Shown here: positions 6,078-51,650 of the stretch, one piece after another
Layout: every line of letters begins with the position of its first letter
Numbering within the stretch: the first letter of the stretch is position 1
DNA from: an uncultured delta proteobacterium
GTDB lineage: Bacteria > Desulfobacterota > Binatia > UBA9968
Reading direction: 5' to 3'
Length of the DNA: 64,000 bases
NCBI GenBank assembly: GCA_963816145.1
Contig: CAWFJP010000014.1
Coordinates: forward strand, 160,001 to 224,000
The notes under the pieces: generated by a model
The model's database searches: none
What the model was told of the DNA's origin: nothing
Seen by the model: only the letters and a program-made list of their open reading frames with translations
Program-made: the position numbers and the translations under genes

Positions 6078-7079
6078 TTATTTACCATACTGCCGGCCCA
6101 TCTCGTCGAAGAAGCCGGAACTCTCCAACTCATTGACATAGCGCGCTTCGATGAAACCATCCGGATTGGCGCCGGCGACTTGCGGGCTGGAGCGCGACAG
6201 CAGGTAGAGCATCGACTTGGCCACGCTCACCGTCGGCGTCGGTTTGTACATTAATCGTTCTTTGTACAGATTATAGATCGTGTTCAGGACCTCTTGATCC
6301 TGAGTCGCGACGTATTTTTTCAAGACGGTGACAGCGTAGTCGGGCTTGGCTTTGAAAAGATATAGACCTTCGATCCAAGCTTTAAGGAAGCGCAGTGTGG
6401 TATCGGGATTCTTGGCAACGTAGGAGCGGCGCACCAGGATGCCGGAGCCGGCGATTTCGATCGGTAGTTTGGAATAGTCGATGAGCGTGCGAAAGCCCAT
6501 TTTGTTCGCTGTCAGGGTCTGGATGCCGGCGATGATCGCGCCGTGAATTCTACCAATCTGTAAACCGCTCAAGCGGGCGCCGAGATCGCCCACCGGCAGA
6601 ATCGTGACATCTTTCTCAGCGATTCCGTTCAAGCGCAGCCCTTCGCGCAGCAAAATATCGGTGAGCGACCCTTGAGTGCTCATGCCGAGGATCTTGCCGC
6701 GCAGTTGCTCGGTGCTGGTGATGTTTTTTTGGACCACCAGCGAATGCTCCAACTGGTTCATCGGCGTGGCGATGAGCGCCGTGTCGGCGCCGCGCTGATA
6801 GGCTTCCAACGCCGGCATGCCGGAGTGATTGACGAATTGCACGCTGCCGCCGATCAGCGACATGATGCTGCGTGGGCCGCCCGAGATGTAGACGAGATTG
6901 ACGTCGAGGCCATGTTTTTCGAATAACTTAGCTTCCTTGGCCACCCAAGTTTGCCCCATGGAGCCCGAGATGGCGCCGTAGCTGACGTTGATTTTCTCCA
7001 ACGCCGCGGCCAGCGTTGGGCGGGCGAGGCTGCCGATAATCACCAGGGTGATTAGGACGGACGATAAGTGTGTCATCAT
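6078..7079 (-). CDS. ABC-type substrate-binding protein, NMT1/SsuA/TauA family
   Basis: Signal peptide, FEKHGLDVNL and LRGKILG motifs. Confidence 0.88.
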   Translation of the reverse strand: MMTHLSSVLITLVIIGSLARPTLAAALEKINVSYGAISGSMGQTWVAKEAKLFEKHGLDVNLVYISGGPRSIMSLIGGSVQFVNHSGMPALEAYQRGADTALIATPMNQLEHSLVVQKNITSTEQLRGKILGMSTQGSLTDILLREGLRLNGIAEKDVTILPVGDLGARLSGLQIGRIHGAIIAGIQTLTANKMGFRTLIDYSKLPIEIAGSGILVRRSYVAKNPDTTLRFLKAWIEGLYLFKAKPDYAVTVLKKYVATQDQEVLNTIYNLYKERLMYKPTPTVSVAKSMLYLLSRSSPQVAGANPDGFIEARYVNELESSGFFDEMGRQYGK

Positions 7080-11894: not shown

Positions 11895-12869
11895 CTATTT
11901 TCTCAGCTCAGCCAGCACTTCTTTTAACAAGCCATAGTCCACCACTTGGGCCGTGAGTATGGTCGCCTTGATCTTATTTTGCTCCCGGACCAGCTCGATA
12001 TCGGCGCGGATCGCGTCGTCGCTGGTGGTGCCGTCCTTGGAGTAGTGCTTAACGATCTCGCGCAAGGACGCCTCGGCGGTTTTACGGTCAAGCTGAAAGT
12101 CCTCGATGATGTATGGAATGATCTTGTCTTGATTCGCCGGGTCGCGCGCGAAGTCCATGCCGCGCAGCGACGCACGGATGGTGCGTTTGACTTGTGCCGG
12201 ATTGGCTTTAATGCGTACGTCGGAAGTGCCCAGGCCCGACAGCGCCGTGCGCAGAAAATCGGCGGCATTGCCGAGGCTACGGTAGCCCAATTCCTCGGCT
12301 TTCAGGTTAAACGGAATCGACAACATCGCTGCCGCTGCCGAACCGGCTTGCAGCGCCGCAAGCGCGTTGGCGGTATTGCCGGCGCTCAAGAAAACCAAAT
12401 CTTGATCAGGGTTCATGCCGGCGGCCTTAGCCATAGCGCGGGCGCTGAGGGCGTCGGTCGCGGCAAGTGCGGTGACGGCGACCGCCTTGCCTTTGAGATC
12501 CTGGATGCGTCGGGTCTCGGCTTTGACCATCATGAAGAAGATCGGTTTGTCGAGGGCGAACATCACCGCCTTGACCGGCAGACCGCTGGCCGCGCCTCGC
12601 AACACCGTGCCAACCGCGGCGATATATTCCATCTCGCCGGTGACGACCGCGGTGAGTTGCACGTCGGCCTTGCCGACAGGAAAAGTCGCTTCGAGGCCTT
12701 CATTTTTGAACAGGCCGAATCTGTCGGCGAGGTAGTAATTTAGAAACGTCAGGCTTTTGGATGGCATGGCGATGCGAATCGGTTCGCCGAAAGCGCCGCC
12801 GATGGCGAAGCCGATTATTCCCAGGACAATCATTGAGCGTAGAATTGTCATCCGAGACACGGCGATCAA
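11895..12869 (-). CDS. ABC-type substrate-binding protein, NMT1/SsuA family
   Basis: Signal peptide, FKNEGLE and DLKGKAVAV. Exact start uncertain. Confidence 0.85.
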   Translation of the reverse strand: MIAVSRMTILRSMIVLGIIGFAIGGAFGEPIRIAMPSKSLTFLNYYLADRFGLFKNEGLEATFPVGKADVQLTAVVTGEMEYIAAVGTVLRGAASGLPVKAVMFALDKPIFFMMVKAETRRIQDLKGKAVAVTALAATDALSARAMAKAAGMNPDQDLVFLSAGNTANALAALQAGSAAAAMLSIPFNLKAEELGYRSLGNAADFLRTALSGLGTSDVRIKANPAQVKRTIRASLRGMDFARDPANQDKIIPYIIEDFQLDRKTAEASLREIVKHYSKDGTTSDDAIRADIELVREQNKIKATILTAQVVDYGLLKEVLAELRK

Positions 12870-18163: not shown

Positions 18164-19159
18164 TCACTTCTTCCAGACCGCGTCGATGAAACCGCTCTTG
18201 TCGAGCTCTTGAATGAAACTGGAGTCGACCACGGCGTTGGGGTCGAAGGTTTTGGCGCGCGGGTCGCGCAGTTCTAAAGTCTTAAGCATGAACTCGATGC
18301 CTTTCATGTTGACGTAGGGGACGCGGTCTTGGAATTTGGTGACGATCTCGTAGGTCGGCCGGAGCACTTCGGGGTCGCGGTTCTGGGCGAAGTCGGCGGT
18401 GACTTTCAAGACGAAGTCGCGGTTGTCTTTGTAGTAGCGGAGTCCTTCGACGAATGTTTTCATGACCCGCATGACGGTGTCGCGATGGGTTTTAATGTAG
18501 CTCTTGGTGCTGGCGAAACAGCTGCCGGGATTGTAGAGACCGAGGGTGCTCATATCGATGAGCTCGTGCAGACCGAGTCTTTCGGCCGCAATGTCCTGTG
18601 GTGGAATGAATGTCGATGCGTGGATAACGCCTTTGCTCAAGGCGGCCAGGCGCGTCGGCGCGCCGCCGACGGCAACCATGGCGAAGTCGCGGTCAGGATT
18701 GAGGCCACGTTCCTTCAAGATGTACCGGATGACGCTGTCTTCCTGTGAGCCGATGGTGGTGACGCCGATCTTTTTGCCCTTAAGATCACCAATGGTTTTG
18801 ACATCCGGTGTCGAGAAGACGCGCCAGTAGAGCGTATTGATGCCGCAAGCGAGATAGACCGTATCGGCCCCGCCGACAGCAGAGGCGACGATGGCCGCGC
18901 CGCCGATGAAGCTCAGCGGCACCTGGCCGGAGACCATGGCCGTGGTGAGTATCGGGCTGCCTTGGATGTAGACCAGGTCGACGTCGAGACCGTTCTTTCT
19001 GAATAGCCCGGACTTGCGCATAACCTCGATGATGCCCAAGGAGGCTACCGGCGCGGGATAGCCGATGACGAGCTTTTCCAGTTTTGGCGCGTCGGCTGGC
19101 CATCCGATCCTTGGAAAAATAACTGCAAGTATCAGCGCAACCCTAGCAACGACTCTCAA
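18164..19159 (-). CDS. ABC-type substrate-binding protein, NMT1/SsuA family
   Basis: Signal peptide, FRKNGLDVDL and DLKGKKIGV. Confidence 0.88.
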   Translation of the reverse strand: MRVVARVALILAVIFPRIGWPADAPKLEKLVIGYPAPVASLGIIEVMRKSGLFRKNGLDVDLVYIQGSPILTTAMVSGQVPLSFIGGAAIVASAVGGADTVYLACGINTLYWRVFSTPDVKTIGDLKGKKIGVTTIGSQEDSVIRYILKERGLNPDRDFAMVAVGGAPTRLAALSKGVIHASTFIPPQDIAAERLGLHELIDMSTLGLYNPGSCFASTKSYIKTHRDTVMRVMKTFVEGLRYYKDNRDFVLKVTADFAQNRDPEVLRPTYEIVTKFQDRVPYVNMKGIEFMLKTLELRDPRAKTFDPNAVVDSSFIQELDKSGFIDAVWKK

Positions 19160-19396: not shown

Positions 19397-20380
19397 ATGA
19401 AATTACTTCGAATCGCTTCTGCTGTGCTCGCATGGTTCCTCATTGCGAAATCAACGCTTTGGAGCGCAGATGTCGTGCGCGTTGGTTATCCTTCGCTCGC
19501 CACCGGGTTTGCCGCCTCATGGGTGACGGCGGACAAGGGCATCTGGAAAAATCACGGGCTCGACGTCGAGTTGATTTTCCTGCGCGGTGGTTCGCGCACG
19601 GTTTCCGCTCTGATCGGTGGCAGCGTTGATTTCATTCTCGGCTCGGACCTGGGAATCACGACGGCGATTATCCAGGGGGCGAGTTTGACGCGGGTCGGCG
19701 TGACCACCAATACCTTGGGTTATTCCATGGTCGTTCAACCCGGCATCAAAACCGTTCGCGATCTCAAGGGTAAGATCATCGGTATCACCCCTGGTCGCGA
19801 CGCCGCATATGCGCGAGTGGTCAAACTGCTGCGCGACAACGGCATGGACGCGGCCAAAGACGTGACGTTTCTTTCGGTGGGCGATGGCGGCCCGGCGGCG
19901 CGAGTGGCGGCGCTGTCGAGCGGCGTGATTCACGCGACCATGTTTACGCCGCCGTCGGATAAGATCTCCGAAAAGTCGGGCATGAGCATTCTCTCGCGGC
20001 TCGATGTCGCCAACGTTGGCGGCGGTATCAACACGACGCCTGGATTTATCCAGAAGAACCGGCCCCAGGCGCTGCGCTTTCTGCGCGGTTACATGGAAGG
20101 CATTCACTATTTGAAGGCGAACAAGGACGAAAGTCTGAAAATCTTTTCCAAGTACGTGCGCAACCCCGACCTCGGCATCATGGCCTATCTCTACGAAGAA
20201 ATTTCCACCCGCGCGGAAAAAGATTTGCGGCCGCAGTCGGACGCCATGCGCGCCATGCTCGATCTCGCCGCCCTGGACTTTCCGCAGGTGAAAAAATTGA
20301 GCGAGAAAGACAACTGGGATCTGAGCTTGATCGACGAGATTCAACGCTCGGGGTTCTTGGAGCAACTGTATCGGAAGTAG
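19397..20380 (+). CDS. ABC-type substrate-binding protein, NMT1/SsuA family
   Basis: Signal peptide, WKNHGLDVEL and DLKGKIIG. Close paralog of 20463-21440. Confidence 0.88.
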   Translation: MKLLRIASAVLAWFLIAKSTLWSADVVRVGYPSLATGFAASWVTADKGIWKNHGLDVELIFLRGGSRTVSALIGGSVDFILGSDLGITTAIIQGASLTRVGVTTNTLGYSMVVQPGIKTVRDLKGKIIGITPGRDAAYARVVKLLRDNGMDAAKDVTFLSVGDGGPAARVAALSSGVIHATMFTPPSDKISEKSGMSILSRLDVANVGGGINTTPGFIQKNRPQALRFLRGYMEGIHYLKANKDESLKIFSKYVRNPDLGIMAYLYEEISTRAEKDLRPQSDAMRAMLDLAALDFPQVKKLSEKDNWDLSLIDEIQRSGFLEQLYRK

Positions 20381-24045: not shown

Positions 24046-25047
24046 ATGATGCGAACTACCTTCATAACAACGCTTCTGATCGCACTCCTGCTCGTTTTTC
24101 CGAGCGCTGAGGGATTTGCGGCCGGTACCAAAACTCAACTCCGCGTCGCCTACAGCTCGATCTCCGGTTCCGCGGTGATTCCGTGGATCGCGGTCGATAA
24201 GGGAATCTTTGCCAAGTACGACCTCGATGTCGAGCTGATCTACGTCGCCGGGTCGCCGGCGATGCAGTCGCTGCTCGGTGGGACGACTCAGGTTAGCATC
24301 CAAGGCATCGAACCGGTGATGCGTGTCAATGCCCAGGGTGGTGATACCGTGATGATCGTCGGGCTGGTGACCAAGCCGCCGTTTTCGATCATCGTGCGGC
24401 CGGAGATTCGCGAGCCCAAGGATCTTAAGGGCAGGGCGATGGGCGTTACCCGGTTCGGTTCGGTCACCGACGCGCTGTTGCGGCTGGCGCTCGACAAGTG
24501 GGGGCTCCGGCCGGAATCCGACGTGCCGATCATTCAGATGGGCGGCGTGCCGCCGATTCTTTCCGGCATGCAGAGCAAGAAGATCTTCGGCGGGCCGATC
24601 TCGCTGCCTACATTGGCCGTCGCCAAGCAGGAAGGCTTTCGCGAGCTGGTGGATCTCGGCGACGTGATTCCCGATTATCAGTCGGCGGGAGTGGTGACGC
24701 GCAAAGCGTTTCTGCGCCAGAATCCGGAGATCGCGCGCAACTTCGTCCGGGCGATGGGCGAAGCGATTGCGGTATTCAAGACTGACGTGTCCTTTTCAAA
24801 GAAGGTCATCAAAGACCGGCTGAAAATCGACGATGCGCTTGTGCAAGAAGAAACCCAGCGAACCTATCTCAACTACGTACCGCGGGTGCCCTATCCGACC
24901 CGCGCCGGCATCGCACTGATCAAAACCTTCCTGGAGAAAAGCGAGCCGCAACTAAAGCCGCTCTCGGTCGACGATCAGATCGATAACTCGTTCGTGCGCG
25001 GACTGGAGCAGAGCGGTTTCTTCAACGCCTTGTATCCCGCGAAGTAA
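24046..25047 (+). CDS. ABC-type substrate-binding protein, NMT1/SsuA family
   Basis: Signal peptide, FAKYDLDVEL and DLKGRAMGVTRFGS. Confidence 0.88.
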   Translation: MMRTTFITTLLIALLLVFPSAEGFAAGTKTQLRVAYSSISGSAVIPWIAVDKGIFAKYDLDVELIYVAGSPAMQSLLGGTTQVSIQGIEPVMRVNAQGGDTVMIVGLVTKPPFSIIVRPEIREPKDLKGRAMGVTRFGSVTDALLRLALDKWGLRPESDVPIIQMGGVPPILSGMQSKKIFGGPISLPTLAVAKQEGFRELVDLGDVIPDYQSAGVVTRKAFLRQNPEIARNFVRAMGEAIAVFKTDVSFSKKVIKDRLKIDDALVQEETQRTYLNYVPRVPYPTRAGIALIKTFLEKSEPQLKPLSVDDQIDNSFVRGLEQSGFFNALYPAK

Positions 25048-26174: not shown

Positions 26175-26208
26175 GAGTGAGATAAGGATGAGGGATGAAG
26201 GCGGAAGG

Positions 26209-27204
26209 ATGAACAAGATAATTCGCGTCACGGTGATTTATCGCATTGGACTGTTCATCGGTATTTTTTCGCTGCTATCATGCCTCGCTCCGGCCCGGGC
26301 GCAGGAGCGGCGCAAGATTCGCATCTCCAACGCGACTCTCAGCTATTCGGCCTTGCCGCTGGTGGCGGCGCGCGAGTGGAAGCTGTTTCAAGAACAAGGA
26401 CTTGACGTCGAGATCATTCTCATGCGCTCGGCGGCGGCTGCGGCGGCGCTGGTTTCCGGAGATCTGGACTATCAATCGGGCATCGGCCCGGCGAGCATCA
26501 GCGCGACCTTGAGCGGCGTCGATTCGCGCGCCCTCTGGTCGTCGACCAGTCGCATCACCTATTGGCTCATGGCCAAGCCGGAGGTGAAGAACGTCACGGA
26601 GCTCAGGCGCAAGAAGATCGGCGTCTCGGGGCTGGGTGGCACCAGCCATGTGGCGTTGACGATCGCGTTGGAAAAGCGCGGCATCGGGCCGAAGGATTAT
26701 GTCGCGGTTTCGGTGCCGGGGGGCAATCTGGTGCAGTCGCTGGATTCCGGTTTCGTCGATGCCGCGGCGCTCAATCCACCGACGATGTTTTTCGCCCAGC
26801 GGCGCGGCTTTGTCCGGGTGCTCGATATCGGCTCACTGGTCGAGATGGCCTCCGGCGGTCTGACCGCGATGACGCGGAACATTCGCAGCCGGCCCGATGA
26901 AGTGAAACGCATTATTCGCGCACTTCAACTGGGCAAGAAGGCGATGCTGGCGTCGCGCGAGAAAACTCTCGCGCTCATCACCGGCGTGCTCAAGATGGAT
27001 AAGGACACCGCGTCGGATACCTATAAGATCGTCCAGGAGAGCTTCAATGACACCGGCATCCCGACGCCGGAAGGGATCGCCAACATTATCAGAGCGATCA
27101 AAGCCGAGGGACGCTTCGCCGATCGCAATGTCGCCTACGAGGAAGTCGCCGAGCCGCGCTTCGCTATCGAGGTGGCGAAGGAATTAGGTTACAAGGTGCA
27201 GTGA
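26209..27204 (+). CDS. ABC-type substrate-binding protein, NMT1/SsuA family
   Basis: FQEQGLDVEI and LRRKKIGVS. The upstream ATG at 26188 lies inside a GGATGAA repeat, so ATG 26209 is preferred. Confidence 0.85.
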   Translation: MNKIIRVTVIYRIGLFIGIFSLLSCLAPARAQERRKIRISNATLSYSALPLVAAREWKLFQEQGLDVEIILMRSAAAAAALVSGDLDYQSGIGPASISATLSGVDSRALWSSTSRITYWLMAKPEVKNVTELRRKKIGVSGLGGTSHVALTIALEKRGIGPKDYVAVSVPGGNLVQSLDSGFVDAAALNPPTMFFAQRRGFVRVLDIGSLVEMASGGLTAMTRNIRSRPDEVKRIIRALQLGKKAMLASREKTLALITGVLKMDKDTASDTYKIVQESFNDTGIPTPEGIANIIRAIKAEGRFADRNVAYEEVAEPRFAIEVAKELGYKVQ

Positions 27205-30492: not shown

Positions 30493-31500
30493 TTACGTAT
30501 CCAGCAGGCTTTCCGCGAACAGTTCTTCGACTTTCATCTGGCGCGGCGTCAAGCCCTGCTCGTGGGAAAAGCCGATGATCATGTCGAGCATGGCGCGATT
30601 GGCTTTGATGCCAAAGGGAAATGGGTCGTCGCCGATGAGCTCGCGGGTCTGAGCCAAGTATTCGGGGCCGAAGATCAGCGCCGCGGGGATTTGTTCGGTT
30701 AGCCTTTCATTCGCAAACGCTTTCGCTTGGACAAATCCATCGTAAAGCTTGGCGGCGAGCCAAGGGTATTGGCGGTGGATGTCGCCGCGGATGATGTAAG
30801 CATGATTGACAGGCAAAAAGCCGTGCTTGCGGTAGAAGCGGGCACCCTCGGCCATGCGGTCGGGAAACAGCGGCCGGATCTTGCTCCAGTCGTCGCCACC
30901 TATGCGGCTCGATCGGTCCAACGCGTTGGCCTGCAGCACCCATGGACTCGCGACATGGGCCACGTCCAGTTCGTGCGCCAACAGGCTTGATTTGAGGCTT
31001 TTGCTCTTGTCGATGCGGCTGAATGAAATTCCCGGCGGCGGCTTGAAGCCGGTAGCACCGCCATGGCTCATCTCTTCGCTTCGCTCCATGTACCAGTGAA
31101 TCTGGTATTGCGACACGCCGAAATCGTGTTCGAGGATGCCGCGCAGCCACAACGCCGCGGTTTGCTGATACTCGGCAACGCCCAAACGCTTGCCCTTGAG
31201 GTCTTGCGGTTTCTCGATGCCTGAGTCGACGTGATAGGACAGCTCGGTTTGAAACAAACGGCGGCTCGGAAAGGCCGGCAGCGCGATCATGTCGGCTCCT
31301 TGCGAGCGGGCGATCAGATACGAGGACATCGACATCTCGGCGACTTCGAATTCGCCGAACTTGAGCTGACGCCAAAATGTTTCGGCGGGATGCGAGTAAG
31401 TTGGGATGAGACTTACGCCCTCGACCTCGATTGTGCCGTTCATCAGCGGCTCGACCCGTTCGTTGAAGGCGGAAATGAATCCTAGGGTGAGTTGTTCCAT
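30493..31500 (-). CDS. OphC-like decarboxylase-family protein (paralog 3, tandem duplicate of paralog 2)
   Basis: Long identical stretches with 29435-30448, e.g. FNERVEPLMNG, PTYSHP and HWYMER. Confidence 0.8.
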   Translation of the reverse strand: MEQLTLGFISAFNERVEPLMNGTIEVEGVSLIPTYSHPAETFWRQLKFGEFEVAEMSMSSYLIARSQGADMIALPAFPSRRLFQTELSYHVDSGIEKPQDLKGKRLGVAEYQQTAALWLRGILEHDFGVSQYQIHWYMERSEEMSHGGATGFKPPPGISFSRIDKSKSLKSSLLAHELDVAHVASPWVLQANALDRSSRIGGDDWSKIRPLFPDRMAEGARFYRKHGFLPVNHAYIIRGDIHRQYPWLAAKLYDGFVQAKAFANERLTEQIPAALIFGPEYLAQTRELIGDDPFPFGIKANRAMLDMIIGFSHEQGLTPRQMKVEELFAESLLDT

Positions 31501-36048: not shown

Positions 36049-37047
36049 TTATTTCAGCCCCAGACTCCTGACGAAGCCGCTCTCGTCCAATTCCTTCACG
36101 ATACTGTCGTCGAGAATTTCTTCCACCTTGACGTCCTTGACCTTGGGATTGTCGCGGGCGGTAAAGTCGATCAGGGTTTTCCAGCCGCGGTTGACCGGGT
36201 AGGGGACTTTAGCGCGGATCTTGTTCACGTAGATGTCGTAGGCGACTTCCAGGATTTCGTCGTCGTTGACGCCGCCGTGGCTGGCCAGCAATTTTTTCGA
36301 CAGCGGTTTGTTTTCTAGGTTTACCTTGATCGCTTCGAGGTAGGCTTTCATGAAGCTGACAACCACCGGTCTCTTGGACTGCATGAACCGGCGCGTGGTG
36401 GCGACGCCGTTGAACGGGAAGTCGCCGCCGAGTTTCGAGATATCGATGAGCGTGTTGTAGCCCTGGCGCGCAAGCAGTTGCGCGAAGGAGTTGCCAAGAC
36501 CCATGGCTGCCGCGGAGATTTGGCCGGCCTGGAGCGCCGTGTAAGTTTCGCGCAGGCCGCCGGTGTAGATGACTTTCACGTCTTTGTCCGGCACCAGCCC
36601 ATGATGGCTGAGGCCGAAGCGCGCCCAATAGTCTGTGTTGGCGCCGCGCCGGGTGACGCCCACCGCTTTGCCTTTGAGATCATTCGGTTGCTTGATCTCG
36701 GGGCGCGACATGATTTGCGCCGCCATGCTGTTGATGATGGTGGCGATGAACACTGCGTCGACGCCCGCGGCTTTGCCGAAGAGCACGGCGGAGCCACCGA
36801 TCTGGCCGATCTGCACGTCGCCCGAGATCATCGCCTGGATGATTCTTGTGCTGCCGCCGAGATAGACTGTGCTGACATCGAGGCCGTACTTTTCGAACAA
36901 GCCGGTTTTTGACGCGGTGATCAGGGTCAGTTCGGACGGGCTGATCGATGAATAACCGGCGACGAGTTTTTCCGCGGCGGAACCATGCCGCGTCAGGGCA
37001 GTGCTGAGTATGACGAGGGCGACGAACGCAATGGATAGTTGTCTCAT
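36049..37047 (-). CDS. ABC-type substrate-binding protein, NMT1/SsuA family
   Basis: Signal peptide, FEKYGLDV and DLKGKAVGV. Confidence 0.88.
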   Translation of the reverse strand: MRQLSIAFVALVILSTALTRHGSAAEKLVAGYSSISPSELTLITASKTGLFEKYGLDVSTVYLGGSTRIIQAMISGDVQIGQIGGSAVLFGKAAGVDAVFIATIINSMAAQIMSRPEIKQPNDLKGKAVGVTRRGANTDYWARFGLSHHGLVPDKDVKVIYTGGLRETYTALQAGQISAAAMGLGNSFAQLLARQGYNTLIDISKLGGDFPFNGVATTRRFMQSKRPVVVSFMKAYLEAIKVNLENKPLSKKLLASHGGVNDDEILEVAYDIYVNKIRAKVPYPVNRGWKTLIDFTARDNPKVKDVKVEEILDDSIVKELDESGFVRSLGLK

Positions 37048-40415: not shown

Positions 40416-40790
40416 ATGCGCGTGCTCAAAATCAACGATCTTAAGGAAACCCCGATGGACACGGCAACGCCGATCGCCGGCTGGACCGGCGGGGCGGTGA
40501 GCCGGACGCGGCAGGCGGTCATCGGCGATGGGCAGTCGGACAACTTCCGCTGTAACGTGGTCAACTTTCGCGTCGGCGCCACCACCGGCTGGCATGTCCA
40601 TGACTGCGATCAGATTCTCGTGGTCACGGCCGGCAAAGGCTTCGCCGCGACGGAGAGTGAACAGCGCGAGATCACCGTCGGCGATATCGTGCATATTAAA
40701 TCTGGCGAGCGCCACTGGCACGGCGCTTCGGCGGATTCGCCGCTGTCGCATATCACGGTGACGACGGTGGGCAGCACTTCGAAGCATTAG
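40416..40790 (+). CDS. Cupin domain protein
   Basis: WHVHDCDQ and GERHWHGA; AAGGAGG RBS. Confidence 0.88.
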   Translation: MRVLKINDLKETPMDTATPIAGWTGGAVSRTRQAVIGDGQSDNFRCNVVNFRVGATTGWHVHDCDQILVVTAGKGFAATESEQREITVGDIVHIKSGERHWHGASADSPLSHITVTTVGSTSKH

Positions 40791-40850
40791 CCGGTCGGTT
40801 ATGATTTTGGGCGAAGGTTTGGTATCGGGACCGTTCCAAGGAGGATTTTC

Positions 40851-41741
40851 ATGGAAATTATCCGCGGCAACTTGAGCGATATCAAAGGCATCCCGCCGAG
40901 CGGTTTATGCGTCGGTGTGCACCGCGCCGGCGCGGTGCATAAGAAGATGGTCGCCAAGCATGGCGACGGTCTGGCGGTCTGGTCGCTTAGGCCCGATCTC
41001 GATTTCATCGCGTTCAAAAAGGAAGGCCTTGGTGAACAGGGGATTCGCTCGACCAACGACATGGCATCGATCGACGGCAATGAAAAACTGATTTATGGCG
41101 TGCGCGGCGCGCCGCCCGAGGTGCGCGAAACGGCGCGCGAGAAAGGTCTGACGCTGCTCGCCGACGCGACCTGTCCCTTTGTTTTACAGCAGGAAGAGGC
41201 CGAGATCGAGCTACTCAACGACGGGCGCCACTTGGTGTTACTCAGTAGTCCTACCCATCACGGCGTGCCGAGGATTCAAGGCATCGCGCGGACCAAGGGT
41301 AAAGAAGTCTTTATCGTCGAGCATGAGGACCAGGTCGACTCGATCCATCTGACTCGATTCGAACCCATCGGCGTGATCGTGCAGACGACTTTCTGGGTGG
41401 AAACCTACAAGAAAATCGTCGCCCGTTTACTGGAGCATTTCGCCAACGTGCAAATTCGCAACACTTCCTGCATCGACTCGCTGCAGCGCCTTCCCGAAGT
41501 CGAGAAGCTCGCCAAGCAAGTCGAAGCGATCGTTATTTTTGGCTGGACCGAAGGGATGACCACCCGGATGCTCGAAGTGGCGCGCGCTTTCAATCCGAAT
41601 GTTTACAAAATCGAGAAGGTGGACGATCTCCGGCTCGACTGGCTGCGCGGCAAGGAAACGGTCGGTATCATCGGTGCCAACGAGACACCCGAATGGATGA
41701 TGAACGATGCCATCGAGCGTATGAAGAGCATGGTGGCCTGA
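40851..41741 (+). CDS. Divergent IspH/LytB-fold [4Fe-4S] protein
   Basis: Three cluster Cys in IspH contexts (GLCVGV.RA, DATCPFV, NTSC) and QTT; VHN, AHG, HPE and SSN substrate motifs are absent. Confidence 0.85.
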   Translation: MEIIRGNLSDIKGIPPSGLCVGVHRAGAVHKKMVAKHGDGLAVWSLRPDLDFIAFKKEGLGEQGIRSTNDMASIDGNEKLIYGVRGAPPEVRETAREKGLTLLADATCPFVLQQEEAEIELLNDGRHLVLLSSPTHHGVPRIQGIARTKGKEVFIVEHEDQVDSIHLTRFEPIGVIVQTTFWVETYKKIVARLLEHFANVQIRNTSCIDSLQRLPEVEKLAKQVEAIVIFGWTEGMTTRMLEVARAFNPNVYKIEKVDDLRLDWLRGKETVGIIGANETPEWMMNDAIERMKSMVA

Positions 41742-41744
41742 ACC

Positions 41745-42026
41745 GTGCCGAAGATCACTTTCATTCCAGCGGAAAAATCGTTCGATGTCGCGCCAGGCAC
41801 GACCATCCTGGTTGCCGCAGTGCAAAACGGATTGCACCTGCGCCATGATTGCACCGAAGCGGTTTGCGGCACCGACCGGGTGAAGATCCTTTCCGGTGCG
41901 GAGCAGCTGAGTGCAATAACCGACAACGAGGAATTGACCCTCGAGATGATGAACGCGGGGCCCAACGAAAGGCTGGCTTGCGTCGCACGGATCGCCGGCG
42001 ATGTGATTGTCGAAATGCCCGAATAA
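41745..42026 (+). CDS. 2Fe-2S ferredoxin with CxxxxCxxD...C motif
   Basis: G.TIL.AA, HDCTEAVCGTD and RLAC. Confidence 0.85.
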   Translation: MPKITFIPAEKSFDVAPGTTILVAAVQNGLHLRHDCTEAVCGTDRVKILSGAEQLSAITDNEELTLEMMNAGPNERLACVARIAGDVIVEMPE

Positions 42027-42045: not shown

Positions 42046-43152
42046 ATGCCGGCACCTGTGGCAATTCTAGCAAAACCGGACGATCACCGCGGCATTCTCA
42101 CCATGGCAGAAGCGGTCGACGCGATGCTCGATGCATTTCGCAATTGGGCGAATGACCCGCTGGTGGCGGAGCTGCGGCGACGCACGCACACGCCGAAGAA
42201 CGTGCGCATTACCCTACATCAGGGCGCGGCACCGGCTTATGGCACGACGGGCATCATGACCCATGCGGAGCTTGTGCGCATTTTCGGCGACAAACAAAAA
42301 TATCCGCGCCGCGGCCGCCCGGTTCTGGTGCTTTATGACAGCGACACGGCGGCTTTGAAGCTCATTCTCGTCGGCGAAATGCATCCCAAGGAGCTGCCGG
42401 ACGCCAACAGCGTGGTGGCGATGCCGACGGCCTGTGCCTCGATGGTCGGCACCGATTTGCTCGCGCGCAAAGACTGCCGGGTCGCCGGGGTTTTCGGTGC
42501 TGGAGATCAAGCGAAGATGCATCTCCTGGCGCTCACCTGTATTCGCAAGTCGATTGACAAGGCGCGCGTCTTCAGTCCGACCCGCGAGACTCGCGAAAAC
42601 TTTGCCGCGGAAATGAGCGCCGTATTGGGCATCGCAGTGACCGCCGCGGAGAGCGCTGCAGATGTTGTCGACGGCGCCGACGTAATCCTGTGCGCGACCA
42701 ATTCAAATGTTCCGGTATTCGACGGCAATTGGCTGGTTCCCGGCCAACATGTCACCTCGATCGTTTCGAGCAATATCGGATTGAAAAAGCGCGGCCACGT
42801 CATTGAAATGCGCCGCGAGATCGACGAGAGGACTCTGGAGCGGGCCGATATTTTGCTGACCAACGTTTGGGGACAGGAAGAGCTGGACAAGACCGCGGTG
42901 TTCTGGGAAGCCTCTCTCGATCGCCCAAACATCGCGGGCAAGATTGTCGATAGCGGAGAGCTCATCCGCGGTGAAAAAAGCGGACGAACCGACGCTGCTC
43001 AAATTACCTATTTCAAAAACTGCGCGTTTTGGGGTATTGGCGCGGCGGCCATCGGCGGACTGATCTATGACAAACTCTTGCAGCAGCGCAAGGGTTTGGC
43101 GCTCGACTTCAACCCGCATGAGTTCTATGACGATACTTGGGCGGAGGATTAG
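42046..43152 (+). CDS. Ornithine cyclodeaminase/mu-crystallin family protein
   Basis: FGAGDQA Rossmann motif, ADVILCATNS, GQHVTSI, REID and ITYFK. Confidence 0.88.
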   Translation: MPAPVAILAKPDDHRGILTMAEAVDAMLDAFRNWANDPLVAELRRRTHTPKNVRITLHQGAAPAYGTTGIMTHAELVRIFGDKQKYPRRGRPVLVLYDSDTAALKLILVGEMHPKELPDANSVVAMPTACASMVGTDLLARKDCRVAGVFGAGDQAKMHLLALTCIRKSIDKARVFSPTRETRENFAAEMSAVLGIAVTAAESAADVVDGADVILCATNSNVPVFDGNWLVPGQHVTSIVSSNIGLKKRGHVIEMRREIDERTLERADILLTNVWGQEELDKTAVFWEASLDRPNIAGKIVDSGELIRGEKSGRTDAAQITYFKNCAFWGIGAAAIGGLIYDKLLQQRKGLALDFNPHEFYDDTWAED

Positions 43153-43218
43153 ATTTGTTTGAATGAGCGGGAAGCCTGGGTTACAGCGCGAAGATGATCG
43201 CAAGGAGGATTGGATAGC

Positions 43219-44124
43219 ATGCGCGGTATAACACCGAGACGAGAACAGGGCATGGCCGATCCGGTGTTGGCCGAGATGGTTCATGCCACCGGGGCGACGG
43301 AGTCGCGTCACTACGCGGCGGTGAAGCCGATCATTCAAGCCTATCGCGCCAGTTGGGTGAAGTTGGCGCCGTTTCGCGACGGGCCGGTCAACCCCCAGCG
43401 CGTGCCGGTCGACGATCCGGCGGCGATGACGGCGCAGATCAAGGCGAAGGCGAGCGAGTGGGGCGCCAACTTGGTCGGCGTCTGCCGCCTGCAGCCGCAT
43501 ATGATCGATCTCGGCTCGGAAGTGTCCCACGAGTTTGTCATCGCCTGCTGCGTCGCCGAAGACTACGAAAAGGTGCTTCAAGGCCCGGACGCCGTCGAGG
43601 AAGAGGCGATGCGGACGTACGCGAAGTGCACCGAGATATCCACTGCGTTAGCTGCCTACGTCCGTGAGATGGGATATCCCGCCATCGCGCACCACAACGG
43701 CGCCAGCGAGGTGCAGGCGATCCCAATTTTCTACCAAGTCGGATTCGGCGAGCTCGGCCGGCATGGCAGTCTGATCAATGAAAAGTATGGCGCGAGCTTT
43801 CGCCCTGGTTTCGTCACCACCGATTTGCCGCTCGTCGAAGACCAGCCGCGAGAGTTCGGCGTTCAGGACTTCTGCATGAACTGCAACGTTTGCCAGCGCA
43901 ACTGCCCGGGCGACGCGATCCCGCAAGACCATGTCATGACCCATGGCATCAAGCGCTGGCTGATCGATTTGGAGAAGTGCTATCCGTATTCCCGCCTGCG
44001 CGAGGAGTATTGCCATCTCTGCGTCGACGTCTGCCCGTACAACGTGAAGTCGCATCCGGACACGTACAAAGCGCTTATGAAAGAGCGTAAACAGGTTGGC
44101 TATAAGACACCAAAGACTTATTGA
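43219..44124 (+). CDS. Reductive-dehalogenase/QueG-like 2x[4Fe-4S] protein (probably cobalamin-binding, no TAT signal)
   Basis: GANLVG, GFGELGRHG, VTTDLPL, FCMNCNVCQRNCP and C..CHLCVDVCP. ATG 43219 follows AAGGAGG. Confidence 0.85.
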   Translation: MRGITPRREQGMADPVLAEMVHATGATESRHYAAVKPIIQAYRASWVKLAPFRDGPVNPQRVPVDDPAAMTAQIKAKASEWGANLVGVCRLQPHMIDLGSEVSHEFVIACCVAEDYEKVLQGPDAVEEEAMRTYAKCTEISTALAAYVREMGYPAIAHHNGASEVQAIPIFYQVGFGELGRHGSLINEKYGASFRPGFVTTDLPLVEDQPREFGVQDFCMNCNVCQRNCPGDAIPQDHVMTHGIKRWLIDLEKCYPYSRLREEYCHLCVDVCPYNVKSHPDTYKALMKERKQVGYKTPKTY

Positions 44125-44203: not shown

Positions 44204-44401
44204 ATGGAAAAGCTTTACGTCAATGCCATCGGACCCGACGGTGATGTCAGCACTGTCGGTTTGTTTTACTCGCAACCTGAAGCGCAAAAAACTGTTGACA
44301 TGCTGGGAACCAATCCCGAGCGAGTCGGTTATCGCTACGAAATCGTCGAAGCGGTGCGGCATGTGCTTTCAGAAAAAAATCCGCCAACCAGCAAGGAGTA
44401 G
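44204..44401 (+). CDS. Small hypothetical protein (65 aa)
   Basis: ATG start; stop lies 2 nt before the next ATG, and the ORF contains that gene's AAGGAG RBS. Confidence 0.5.
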   Translation: MEKLYVNAIGPDGDVSTVGLFYSQPEAQKTVDMLGTNPERVGYRYEIVEAVRHVLSEKNPPTSKE

Positions 44402-44403
44402 CC

Positions 44404-44955
44404 ATGCCCTATATCAAGACGATTCCGCCCACAGAGGCGACCGGAAAACTGAAGGAAGTCTATGAAACGGCGGGCGGCCCTTCGGCGGCGCGCGGCAAGG
44501 TCGCGATGGTGCGCCAGGTGCAAAGCCTCAATGCCGACGCGCTCGCCGCCTGGAGCGATCTTGGCGCAGCGATCATGCACGGCCCGTCGCGCCTGAGCAG
44601 GCGCCAGCGCGAGATGATCGCCACGGTGGTGTCGGCGACCAATCATTGCAGCTATTGAACGACTGCGCACGGAGAGGCTCTCCGTAGCGAAACCCACGAC
44701 GATCCGTTCGTCAAAGCGATTAAACAGGATTACACCAAGATTGATTTAACGGCAGCGGAGCGGGCCATGCTCGATTACGCGGTGAAACTGACGGTGACGC
44801 CGTCGAGCGTAACGGCAGAAGATGTTTTGATATTGCGCGCTCATGGGTTCGACGACCGCGATATACTCGACATCATCTACGTTGTTTGTTTGTACAATTT
44901 TAACGACCGGCTGGCCGACGCGACCGGCATCAAAGGGCATGATTTTCTTAGTTGA
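44404..44955 (+). CDS. AhpD/carboxymuconolactone-decarboxylase-like peroxidase selenoprotein (CxxU), 183 aa
   Basis: REMIATVVS..NHCSY-TGA(44656-44658)-TTAHGEAL continues in frame into ORF 44767-44955 (AMLDYA.KLT..P...NRLAD-like C-terminus). Confidence 0.9.
44666..44689 (+). promoter_or_regulatory. Bacterial SECIS-like hairpin
   Basis: CGC-ACGGAGA-[GGC]-TCTCCGT-A-GCG; G-initiated loop starts 17 nt after the UGA. Confidence 0.8.
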
Positions 44956-44994
44956 CATCGTCCGCCGCCGGGTGTGACGCACAGGTTGGCCATT

Positions 44995-45876
44995 ATGCCG
45001 TTCAGCTACGCCGAGTTCATGACTCAACTGATGGCGCCCAAGCCCTATCCAGCGCAGGCGGTTTTTACCGCGCCCCGGATAACGGCACTGCGCAAGCCGG
45101 TTGCAGAATGCACCCTCGGTGTCTTTACCAGCTGTGGCGCACAGCTGAAGGACGACCGACCGCTGGCCGAGACCAACGATCTTTCCTACCGGCTGCTGCA
45201 CCGTGACGTAGCGCTCTCGGAGCTGAAGATCAATCACATGACGCCGTCGCGCAAGTGGGCGCTGGAGGACTTGAACGTCGCTTATCCGCGCGACCGGCTG
45301 ATCGAGTTGGAGGCGGAGGGGGTTTTCAAGAAGCTTGCGCCCAGCGCCGTTTCCATGGTCGGTTCGATCACGTTGTACACGGAGCTTTTGAGCGATGCCG
45401 TGCCGCGGATCAAGCAAGAATTCGACCGGCAGGAAGTCGACCTGGTGCTGATCGTGCCGTTTTGACCGCAATGCCATCGGTCCGTGGGACTGATCGCAAG
45501 AGGACTGGAAGCGAGAGGTTTGCCGACCGTGAGCCTGAGCACCGTATGGGACATCACTCTGGCGGTAAAACCGCCGCGGCCATGCTTCCTGGATTTCCCG
45601 ATCGGCTGTCCGGTCGGCAAGCCGGGCATGCCGGAATTGCAGCGGCAAATACTGAAAGCGGTCTTCTCCCAGGCGGAGAAATTTACCGGTGATTGGGCGC
45701 TGCATGAGCTGCCCTTCCAGTGGGCAAAGGATGGCAGCCGTCATTGGGAGGAAGAGCTCAAGGATCTCTACCGGCGAGGCCTCGGCACGGTGGAGGCGCA
45801 TGTTGCGGATCATCGCCGTCGCGGTGAGGCGCTGATCGGTCAAGAGGAAGCGTTTGCGCTGCGCTGCAATTGCTAG
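44995..45876 (+). CDS. Glycine/sarcosine/betaine/D-proline reductase selenoprotein B (GrdB/PrdB)-like protein (UxxC), ~293 aa
   Basis: VDLVLIVPF-TGA(45463-45465)-PQCHRSVGLIARGLEARGLPTV joins ORFs 44974-45465 and 45484-45876 in one frame; also D.N..YP.DRL.ELE.EG and PPR..F..FP.G.P.G. Confidence 0.92.
45472..45498 (+). promoter_or_regulatory. Bacterial SECIS-like hairpin
   Basis: TGC-C-ATCGGTCC-[GTG]-GGACTGAT-C-GCA; GU loop starts 18 nt after the UGA. Confidence 0.8.
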
Positions 45877-50618: not shown

Positions 50619-51650
50619 CTACCGCCCGGATTGCAAAGCCACTCGTTTCCTCGCTTCCGCCAGGTAGCCGTTTTCTTCGAGCGCTTTCACGACGCTCATG
50701 TTGATGGATTCGTTGACGTCGACTTGGCCGGCCTTGGGATTGACCCGGGCGATGAATCTTTGGATATTCTTCCACGCCGCCGGGTCCGGCGCGATGTCGA
50801 GGCTGGTCATCGAACGCACGGAAAGATACGAGGTCTCGGCATCCTCGTCGGTGGTCAGGCGCAGGTGTTTTTTCATAACCTCGGCGACTTCCCGTTTGTT
50901 GCGCGGATCGAGAATGTAAACGATGCCGTCGATCATGCCTTTGGTGAGGCGCATGATCAGGTCGGGAGAAGCGGCCAGTCGCTCAGCCCGTCCACAGATA
51001 CCCACAGTCTGCAGCGGGATGCGCAGATCCGACGAGTTGACCAACGAGCGCATGCCGCCGCGCTTGGCCACCGCCGCGGAGGGCAAGGTCACGACCGCGG
51101 CATCTATGTTCGCACTGAGCAGTGCTTGGACGATGGTCGGTTCATCGCCGATGACGCGAATTTTCATGCCCAACTTGTCGGGGTCGAGGCCGAGACCGTC
51201 CAGGACCATCATAGTCTGGAGCCAGAATCCGCCGCCGATGCTTTGCACTCCGATAGTCTTGCCGCGCAGCGCCGCCACCGAGTCAATATCCTTGCGCACC
51301 ACCAGTTCGCGCGAAATCCCCTTGATCGGGAACGCGACGCAACCGATCTTCACCCCGGCCGACACGCCGCTCAGTACATTGCCGACCGACGGTAGAAAAA
51401 TCGGCACCTCGCCCGACACCAGCGCCGCCAAACTGATCTGCGCGTTACGCACCTGCAGCAAGCGCGCGTCGATCCCGTGCTTTTGATAGAGCCCTTTGTC
51501 GATCGCCACCCAATAGGGGCCGATGGTTTCGTTATGGCCGCCGTAGGCCATCAGCACAACGTCATCGGCGTGGGCTCGCCCTAGGAGCGAGAAAAACAGA
51601 ACGATGGAAATGCATCGACAAAGTCTCCAGGGTAGAAGCGCCAAATACAT
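50619..51650 (-). CDS. ABC-type substrate-binding protein, NMT1/SsuA family
   Basis: Signal peptide, YQKHGID and LRGKTIGV. Confidence 0.88.
   Translation of the reverse strand: MYLALLPWRLCRCISIVLFFSLLGRAHADDVVLMAYGGHNETIGPYWVAIDKGLYQKHGIDARLLQVRNAQISLAALVSGEVPIFLPSVGNVLSGVSAGVKIGCVAFPIKGISRELVVRKDIDSVAALRGKTIGVQSIGGGFWLQTMMVLDGLGLDPDKLGMKIRVIGDEPTIVQALLSANIDAAVVTLPSAAVAKRGGMRSLVNSSDLRIPLQTVGICGRAERLAASPDLIMRLTKGMIDGIVYILDPRNKREVAEVMKKHLRLTTDEDAETSYLSVRSMTSLDIAPDPAAWKNIQRFIARVNPKAGQVDVNESINMSVVKALEENGYLAEARKRVALQSGR

Follow-up and report, generated by a model that had tools for sequence, protein, structure and literature searches.

A LytB/IspH-fold paralogue of Binatia-type bacteria with retained cluster ligands, a remodelled substrate pocket and its own unusual ferredoxin

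[quoted passage not shown] The gene lies in a stretch of 64,000 nucleotides (hereafter the window, meaning the whole stretch that was analysed; assembly GCA_963816145.1, contig CAWFJP010000014.1, positions 160,001 to 224,000, GTDB lineage Binatia; UBA9968). To our knowledge, only one reaction is known for IspH, which has drawn interest both as a drug target and for the organometallic Fe-S chemistry that it models; public sources label the paralogue family HMBPP reductase. An earlier note, made from the letters of the window, had proposed instead a neofunctionalised reductase or dehydratase that keeps the Fe-S ligands of IspH and has lost its HMBPP site. Here we show that the paralogue belongs to a distinct, constrained and accessory clade within the known fold, with its own unusual ferredoxin. 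We consider it probable, with moderate confidence, that the protein is a neofunctionalised, ferredoxin-fed redox enzyme with a [4Fe-4S] cluster and a non-diphosphate substrate. Neofunctionalisation is supported by the kept ligands, the invariant new pocket, a canonical IspH elsewhere in the genome and the ferredoxin partner, whereas the terms "non-diphosphate substrate" and "reductase or dehydratase" are ones that we infer. The features discussed are collected in Table 1.

The family assignment was examined with profile and structure searches. The paralogue, whose GC content at third codon positions is 0.72, matched the Pfam LYTB profile PF02401 with 151.4 bits (E 3.9e-44; gathering cut-off, 24.5), its residues 16-292 covering profile positions 6-267 of 267. 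AlphaFold2 (AF2), run on alignment A3, returned a model with a predicted local distance difference score (pLDDT) of 94.9 and a predicted template-modelling score (pTM) of 0.89, and the Foldseek matches at E <= 0.001 were IspH/LytB structures only (11 of the 12 matches seen). The template-modelling (TM) score of the model was 0.82-0.85 against closed E. coli IspH and 0.62-0.68 against the Aquifex enzyme, with a structure-based identity of 21-26% to E. coli IspH. Model and matches thus bear out the IspH fold that had been proposed, and the PF02401 match, the three-domain fold and the three cluster cysteines place the protein in the LytB/IspH superfamily. It remained under the curated cut-off of all seven NCBIfam IspH models that it matched; TIGR00216 was nearest in ratio (130.4 against a cut-off of 187.85), and NF002187 gave 138.6 against 276. 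By NCBIfam score the paralogue is therefore not an IspH equivalog (EC 1.17.7.4). The whole window gave no Rfam match at gathering scores, and hence no riboswitch hint to a ligand.

The pocket was mapped site by site by aligning the paralogue with HMMER to the 3SZU chain of E. coli IspH, whose numbering runs 12 ahead of the native one, and compared across 106 sequences, namely the target and 105 distinct members among 118 full-length ones from 131 fetched loci. The three cluster cysteines (C20, C108 and C207) and the QTT motif (Q178-T179-T180) are retained, as the earlier note had read them. It had also reported that VHN is missing and that VRG, HHG and EGM stand in place of the other motifs, and the alignment agrees on all four points. 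H41-N42 aligns to F52-I53 with HMMER and D51 falls at H41 with MAFFT; no VHN occurs in the whole paralogue. The E126 position is taken by G138 (HMMER) or by R141 (MAFFT, which places a 3-residue insertion after the H124 position), and none of the 106 sequences has a Glu in the H-H-G-V/I-P-R segment. H124 is thus retained as H136, whereas the segment has no catalytic Glu and has acquired R141, which is invariant. V111 corresponds to E. coli V99 and is kept; A199-T200 is replaced by D209-S210, the first residue being changed and the second conservatively so. T167 and H124 of the hydroxyl/proton network are kept as T179 and H136, both invariant.

An excerpt of PMC8837944 gives the diphosphate pocket of IspH as H41, H74, H124, S225, S269, T168, N227 and Q166. 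Three of these eight are kept in the paralogue (H124, T168 and Q166) and five are changed, to F/D, R, E, E and M. The altered HMBPP site of the earlier note is confirmed to this extent: five of eight diphosphate-pocket side chains and the catalytic E126 are replaced, and invariantly so in the 106 relatives. As a control we used the 71 canonical IspH rows of alignment A3, selected by length from a representative search. These rows retain H41 (70/71), N42 (71/71), H74 (69/71), H124 (71/71), E126 (70/71), S225 (71/71), N227 (71/71) and S269 (71/71), and conservation at this level indicates that the deviations of the paralogue are not ordinary family variation. At the H74 column, for example, Arg stands in 19 of 19 family rows and 4 of 4 distant rows, compared with His in 69 of 71 canonical rows. 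As judged from the aligned residues, the cluster-proximal half of the pocket is retained (V23, V111, H136, Q178-T179-T180 and S210), and the diphosphate half together with the proton-donor Glu is swapped for D51/F52, R85, H137-G138, R141, D209, E234-G-M236 and N277-E278.

The replacements are under constraint. Among the 106 sequences, 105 of 296 positions are invariant, and the invariant set includes D51, F52, R85, H136-H137-G138, R141, QTT, C207-x-D209-S210, W232-T-E-G-M236 and A276-N-E-T279. The ratio of nonsynonymous to synonymous substitution rates (dN/dS) was 0.05-0.10 in all seven orthologue pairs, at dS 0.8-1.5. Invariant replacements together with low dN/dS indicate that the pocket has been remodelled rather than decayed, and purifying selection on the gene is strong. 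In five genome pairs, the paralogues were 85, 89, 73, 73 and 71% identical, and the essential canonical IspHs of the same pairs were below them, at 73, 80-86 (two pieces), 63, 62 and 48%.

A word-indexed search returned 360 proteins at E <= 0.001, the best 120 of which were 72-92% identical to the paralogue, with one at 58%. An exhaustive search of 1.84 billion cluster representatives returned 26 proteins only at E <= 1e-30, among them one full-length family representative (P0016, 553 bits) and fragments. Between the family and the canonical IspHs, whose matches set in near 30% identity and 120 bits, stand four to five full-length intermediates: P0123 (46%), P0128 (39%), P0142/P0143 (35-36%) and P0145 (33%). 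A quick IQ-TREE tree of 94 rows, with an arbitrary root, separated 23 rows (19 family, 4 distant) by one branch with an SH-aLRT support of 99 from 71 canonical rows that include the genome's own IspH; the alignment and tree with LytB relatives that the earlier note had called for thus set the family apart. The four distant rows (P0123, P0128, P0142 and P0143) all share Arg at H74, Arg at the MAFFT E126 column and D-S after the third Cys, so that R85, R141, D209 and S210 are common to all of them. Like the paralogue they are without VHN and SxN, but they differ from it in having neither the E234-G-M236 nor the N-E278 motif; their identity to it is 29-45% in alignment A1 and 35-46% over matched stretches. 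A metagenome scan with the distant-relative alignment A2 found 80 loci, all of the Binatia-type family and 72-88% identical to the target. With tblastn, 76 plasmid records matched, all at <60% identity; the 12 listed were 26-28% identical, with features annotated as ispH/HMBPP reductase (6/12) or with none (6/12). The ESM Atlas gave LytB-named clusters only.

We asked which protein serves the methylerythritol phosphate (MEP) pathway of the source genome, which comprises 7.8 Mb in 31 contigs and is 99.5% complete. The search for a canonical ispH that the earlier note had suggested found one at G000:C17:133311-134150, which scored 328.9 bits, above the cut-off, and carries the motifs VHN, AHG, H-D-E, S-E-N and GAS; IspG (410 bits) and Dxr (510 bits) occur in the same genome. 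The paralogue is therefore neither the sole IspH-type protein of its genome nor its MEP-pathway IspH, a role that the canonical copy would fill.

The distribution of the paralogue was tallied at E <= 1e-60 in all 123 genomes for the order, including the unpublished G205 (no match), G277 and G297 (both matching). The paralogue was found in 59 of the 123: the source genome and 26 of 89 others of its own family, 4 of 5 of family f86 and 28 of 28 of family f87. Among genomes with at least 90% completeness and at most 5% contamination, 37 of 58 carry it. It was not found in the 98-100% complete congeners G205, G206, G207, G208 and G286, nor in any of 200 other genomes sampled from the phylum, where the best match (32% identical, E 7e-36) is a canonical IspH. 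A canonical-type match accompanied the paralogue in 16 of 18 carrier genomes; in G209 (93% complete, 670 contigs) no canonical IspH was found with the query used. In G204, which has the paralogue, the canonical IspH is in two overlapping pieces (G204:C9:878821-879757; query residues 2-127 and 120-313), owing perhaps to a frameshift or to faulty assembly. The paralogue is an accessory gene. Most named records that carry it go under Candidatus Binatia, Deltaproteobacteria or Thermodesulfobacteriota; a few labelled Verrucomicrobiia, Udaeobacter or Gaiellaceae may be binning artefacts. The locus was present in 20 DNA sequencing runs from 18 studies of wetland, soil and sediment.

The ferredoxin reported to lie 3 nt downstream is there: its GTG start at 41745 follows the TGA stop of the paralogue (41739-41741), and the product matches PF00111 Fer2 with 43 bits (cut-off, 21). 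A profile of 23 ferredoxin sequences matched PDB 1I7H and 9I2A at E about 1e-11. The third Cys ligand position is occupied by D44 (CGTD compared with CGTC in 9I2A; codon 41874-41876) in 76 of 76 distinct ferredoxin sequences and in 23 of 23 rows of alignment A4, so that the protein has three Cys only and does not show the four-Cys pattern C-x4/5-C-x2-C ... C. The next gene 3' of the paralogue is this ferredoxin in 94 of 131 loci (23/51 from genomes, 71/80 from metagenomes) and a UbiD-like gene in 23 of 131 (23/51 and 0/80); a contig end or broken match follows in nine (two and seven). Among the 123 genomes of the order, at E <= 1e-25, 53 of the 59 that carry the paralogue have the ferredoxin, and none of the other 64 does. 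In f87 the ferredoxin co-occurs though far off, as in G220, where the two genes are at 2.98 Mb and 1.44 Mb. These data indicate that the ferredoxin is a fixed partner of the paralogue. Complex prediction of the paralogue (A3) with the ferredoxin (A4) scored 0.12 and 0.27, the mark being 0.32, which is evidence neither way. By eye, the f87 ferredoxin gene adjoins an open reading frame (ORF) resembling the isocitrate-lyase/PEP-mutase family, with LigB-like and SDR-like ORFs near.

How the enzyme might work can be outlined from these residues. Judging from the ligands and the fold, C20, C108 and C207 would hold a [4Fe-4S] cluster whose fourth iron is open to substrate as in IspH. This iron would bind a hydroxyl or a similar ligand of the substrate, and IspH-type chemistry could then take place at it, most likely a reductive cleavage, with two electrons, of the C-O bond of a hydroxyl in allylic or benzylic position. 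The co-encoded 93-aa ferredoxin would supply the electrons; its adjacency and co-occurrence are observed. R85 and R141, kept even in distant relatives, may bind an anionic group, the simplest candidate being a carboxylate, and the handle of the substrate is probably a carboxylate held by these two arginines. E234, E278 and D51 speak against a diphosphate and might be turned towards a portion of the substrate that is cationic or neutral; a cationic group of the substrate possibly lies near these new acidic residues. Proton delivery might, as a guess, be taken over by D209, H137 or E234.

Table 1. Positions in the 64,000-nt window of the paralogue, its pocket residues, the ferredoxin gene and other genes and sites
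Feature	Coordinates	Strand	Basis
LytB/IspH-fold paralogue, 296 aa	40851-41741	+	ORF; PF02401; AF2; Foldseek
Shine-Dalgarno-like AGGAGG, 6 nt 5' of the paralogue ATG	40839-40844	+	read from sequence
C20, first [4Fe-4S] ligand (E. coli C12)	40908-40910	+	alignment; 106/106 invariant
D51-F52 in place of H41 (VHN)	41001-41006	+	HMMER and MAFFT alignments; invariant
R85 in place of H74 (AHG to VRG)	41103-41105	+	alignment
C108, second cluster ligand (E. coli C96)	41172-41174	+	alignment; invariant
H136-H137-G138-V-P-R141 in place of H124-P-E126	41256-41273	+	alignments; invariance
Q178-T179-T180, retained Q166-T167-T168	41382-41390	+	alignment; invariance
C207, third cluster ligand (E. coli C197), then I208, D209 (A199) and S210 (T200)	41469-41480	+	alignment
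E234-G235-M236 in place of S225-S226-N227	41550-41558	+	alignments; invariance
N277-E278 in place of A268-S269	41679-41684	+	alignments; invariance
[2Fe-2S]-type ferredoxin, 93 aa, with C36, C41, C79 and D44	41745-42026	+	PF00111, conservation, PDB alignment, adjacency, co-occurrence
Cupin, 124 aa, frequent upstream neighbour	40416-40790	+	PF07883; NF049940 80 bits, cut-off 140
Ornithine cyclodeaminase/mu-crystallin (OCD) family protein	42046-43152	+	PF02423 113 bits
Reductive-dehalogenase-like (RdhA-like) protein, 304 aa, two 4Fe-4S motifs	43210-44124	+	TIGR02486 119 bits, cut-off 160
Terminator-like hairpin with T tail, possible transcription-unit end	44235-44269	+	consensus scan: 6 sites vs 7.9 expected, weak
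B12-binding radical SAM protein, 637 aa	38162-40075	-	best NCBIfam models far under cut-off
AhpD/CMD-like peroxidase-related gene with in-frame TGA	44404-44955	+	TIGR01926 143.6 bits, read through TGA
PrdB/GrdB-like gene with in-frame TGA	44974-45876	+	TIGR04483 PrdB 115.5 bits, cut-off 300
NMT1/THI5-like solute-binding protein genes	6078-7079, 11895-12869, 18164-19159, 19397-20380, 24046-25047, 26188-27204, 30493-31500, 36049-37047, 50619-51650

The genes around the paralogue offer a loose hint to its substrate. The cupin is upstream in some related loci, for example L005, L006, L013, L077, L088, L099 and L111. The best PDB match of the OCD protein is delta1-pyrroline-2-carboxylate reductase 6T3E (E 7e-27). 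The RdhA-like protein aligns to NpRdhA 4RAS with E 3.6e-55 (residues 66-280 against 345-573 of 704) and corresponds to the cobalamin/Fe-S half of that catabolic enzyme, being half its size and without its reductase domain. Both genes recur in many loci with 82-93% identity. The OCD gene is missing in L003, L017, L084, L111, L114 and L134, and the OCD protein is thus a frequent but dispensable member of the cassette. In three further loci it is reduced to fragments of 88-128 aa (L094 2288-2671, L096 9459-9842 and L097 5187-5450), which suggests ongoing loss. A hydroxyproline-type substrate, hinted at by the likeness of the OCD gene to the pyrroline carboxylate reductase, was considered and is not favoured because many loci lack the gene or have it in truncated form. 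Other recurrent neighbours are the cupin, VOC/glyoxalase proteins, several glutathione S-transferases, IclR and GntR regulators, Amidohydro_2 proteins and a bicupin that has weak similarity to dioxygenases of 5-aminosalicylate or gentisate.

The UbiD-like protein of f87 is nearest to the phenylphosphate carboxylase beta and VdcC models, under their cut-offs, and a SLOG/TIGR00725 protein follows the UbiD gene in 25 loci. The conserved gene string of f87 (L025-L053, for example L026 6915-12092) runs from a 346-aa VOC-like protein through the LytB-like, UbiD-like and SLOG/TIGR00725 proteins to an AI-2E transporter, with the VOC-like protein directly 5' of the LytB-like gene in eight loci. A cytokinin- or zeatin-type substrate, which the SLOG/TIGR00725 neighbour had suggested, was set aside since the loci of the ferredoxin type have no such neighbour.

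Taken loosely, the neighbourhood theme is the catabolism of hydroxylated or halogenated aromatic acids, to which the RdhA-like protein, a UbiD-like decarboxylase of the phenolic-acid kind, the bicupin, the glutathione S-transferases, the IclR regulators and the Amidohydro_2 proteins all point. A more specific reading, which we put forward tentatively and think likelier to be wrong than right, is that of a ferredoxin-driven [4Fe-4S] reductive dehydroxylase that would use the organometallic chemistry of IspH on a hydroxy-carboxylate of allylic or benzylic type, as soil and wetland Binatia-type bacteria break down hydroxylated or halogenated aromatics, with the dedicated [2Fe-2S] ferredoxin with its Asp ligand as donor; it would be the first IspH-fold family outside isoprenoid synthesis. 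Its substrate might possibly be a hydroxy-methyl-butenyl unit on a new handle.

Several observations weigh against a ferredoxin-fed redox enzyme with a non-diphosphate substrate. The pocket positions depend on alignment to E. coli IspH. With E126 absent, the proton relay of IspH would have to be replaced. The retention of H124, Q166 and T168 and the gain of two arginines, both invariant, make an anionic group possible, a carboxylate or even a single phosphate. The third Cys ligand is missing from the ferredoxin, which leaves cluster binding by the ferredoxin itself putative, and in five of 131 loci (L023, L033, L034, L068 and L069; three from genomes and two from metagenomes) the next gene is neither the ferredoxin nor a UbiD-like gene. 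The co-occurrence counts come from related, non-independent genomes, f87 being one genus. The OCD-like and RdhA-like genes are variably present, absent or truncated, which leaves the pathway assignment soft, and the scores of the neighbour families are mostly under curated cut-offs. All named records are metagenome-assembled genomes, with no cultured carrier among them, and no RNA run is listed among the sequencing runs with the locus.

What else could the protein be? The open iron might serve as a Lewis acid in a redox-neutral (de)hydratase or isomerase resembling aconitase, with the ferredoxin merely keeping the cluster reduced or repaired. Such a role would suit the loss of the catalytic Glu of the reductive mechanism, and an excerpt of PMC8837944 describes IspH as turning alkyne inhibitors into an aldehyde or ketone, an acetylene-hydratase side reaction; moreover, five loci with room for it lack an adjacent ferredoxin and 6 of 59 paralogue genomes lack a ferredoxin match. 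However, the absence of the ferredoxin from all 64 genomes without the paralogue and its adjacency in 94 of 131 loci fit a stoichiometric donor better than occasional repair, and the paralogue still has T167 and H124, which act in the reductive mechanism, so we regard redox-neutral chemistry as unlikely. We think it still less probable that the substrate is the C5 hydroxy-methyl-butenyl unit on another handle, such as a monophosphate, yielding dimethylallyl phosphate from which UbiX would make prenylated FMN for the UbiD set. The paralogue retains the hydrocarbon-binding, cluster-proximal half of the pocket (V23, V111, QTT and S210), the two invariant arginines could hold one phosphate, a UbiD-like gene is directly 3' in 23 of 131 loci, and 46 UbiD-family matches and a single UbiX occur in the genome. 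Yet UbiX is not adjacent, the invariant acids E234, E278 and D51 have taken the places of phosphate-binding Ser and His, there is no E126, and three 98-99% complete congeners without the paralogue have 41, 48 and 43 UbiD matches, against 36 and 52 in two that carry it.

A second, divergent HMBPP reductase (IspH2) that still works, as in bacteria with two LytB proteins, has the shared fold and the kept cluster ligands, H124 and T167 in its favour, together with the duplicate LytB genes of Mycobacterium tuberculosis, both of which are tied to HMBPP reduction in an excerpt of PMC4550268. We nevertheless consider it quite improbable. In the portion of PMC8837944 at hand, E126Q leaves 0.3% activity and E126D and E126A are nearly inactive, and here the residue is Gly or Arg in 106 of 106 sequences; in addition, the five changed diphosphate ligands and the failure to reach any matched IspH equivalog cut-off speak against HMBPP, as does the patchy occurrence of the paralogue beside a canonical copy in 16 of 18 genomes and a split copy in G204. 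Most improbable of all, in our view, is a protein that is not an enzyme and retains its cluster as an Fe-S redox or oxygen sensor or as a scaffold. Oldfield's group proposed sensor-like roles for IspH clusters (PMC4746011, in excerpt), but the invariance of the paralogue is concentrated at positions lining the IspH substrate pocket and its genomic company consists of metabolic enzymes. The protein also stands alone at 296 aa, a Pfam scan of it showing neither a DNA-binding nor a signalling domain; a search of proteins of 519-2000 aa at E <= 1e-40 yielded no longer, fused form, which is weak evidence. The ferredoxin-fed, neofunctionalised redox enzyme thus remains the reading that we prefer.

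Other features of the window and the genome were recorded as well. The AhpD/CMD-like gene has an in-frame TGA, giving C82-S-Y-U85-T-T-A-H, a CxxU form of CxxC; SelB is present in the genome (417 bits), and the product of the gene is, on this reading of the codon, likely a selenoprotein. The PrdB/GrdB-like gene that follows has an in-frame TGA as well, within U164-P-Q-C167 (UxxC), and would likely yield a stand-alone selenoprotein B-type reductase subunit. The radical SAM gene is divergently oriented and lies upstream of the cupin and LytB-like genes; its best NCBIfam models are those of the PhpK-type P-methyltransferase and of RiPP C-methyltransferases, and L111 has an 84% identical copy at the same position. 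The window holds nine NMT1/THI5-like genes, and more are near the paralogue in related loci. The UbiD complement is very large, with 46 matches to one UbiD query in the source genome and 36-52 PF01977 matches in each of five congeners (G204, G206, G207, G208 and G218); only one UbiX is above the cut-off in the source genome (C4:390943-391488).

A 2016 paper reportedly distinguished four IspH classes. In the full-text literature, subscription journals not being covered, we found no description of an IspH-like family with an altered substrate site. E. coli IspH shares with the paralogue the three-domain trefoil fold, three cysteines to hold a [4Fe-4S] cluster whose fourth iron is open, the residues H124, Q166, T167, T168 and V99, and a plausible ferredoxin-type electron supply; unlike it, the paralogue has H41, H74, E126, S225, N227 and S269 replaced and has a dedicated ferredoxin gene. 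M. tuberculosis likewise has a second LytB-family gene beside the main one (LytB1/LytB2), but by their description in an excerpt of PMC4550268 both copies are treated as IspH homologues, whereas the paralogue has lost the residues of HMBPP reduction. Sequence networks have revealed the IspH-family variants IspH-RPS1 and IspH-UbiA, both fusions; in the excerpt of PMC4746011, IspH-RPS1 keeps an active HMBPP-reducing IspH domain, whereas the present family is unfused and its pocket is changed. That survey of 15,660 IspHs mentions, in the same excerpt, fusions and no such clade.

The HMBPP reductase label that the family now carries could mislead the reconstruction of the MEP pathway in metagenome-assembled genomes of Binatia-type bacteria. 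At 296 and 93 aa, the paralogue and its three-Cys/Asp ferredoxin form a compact pair of genes that lends itself to expression and to the search for a substrate, and the clade would show that the rare chemistry of IspH has been recruited for another substrate.

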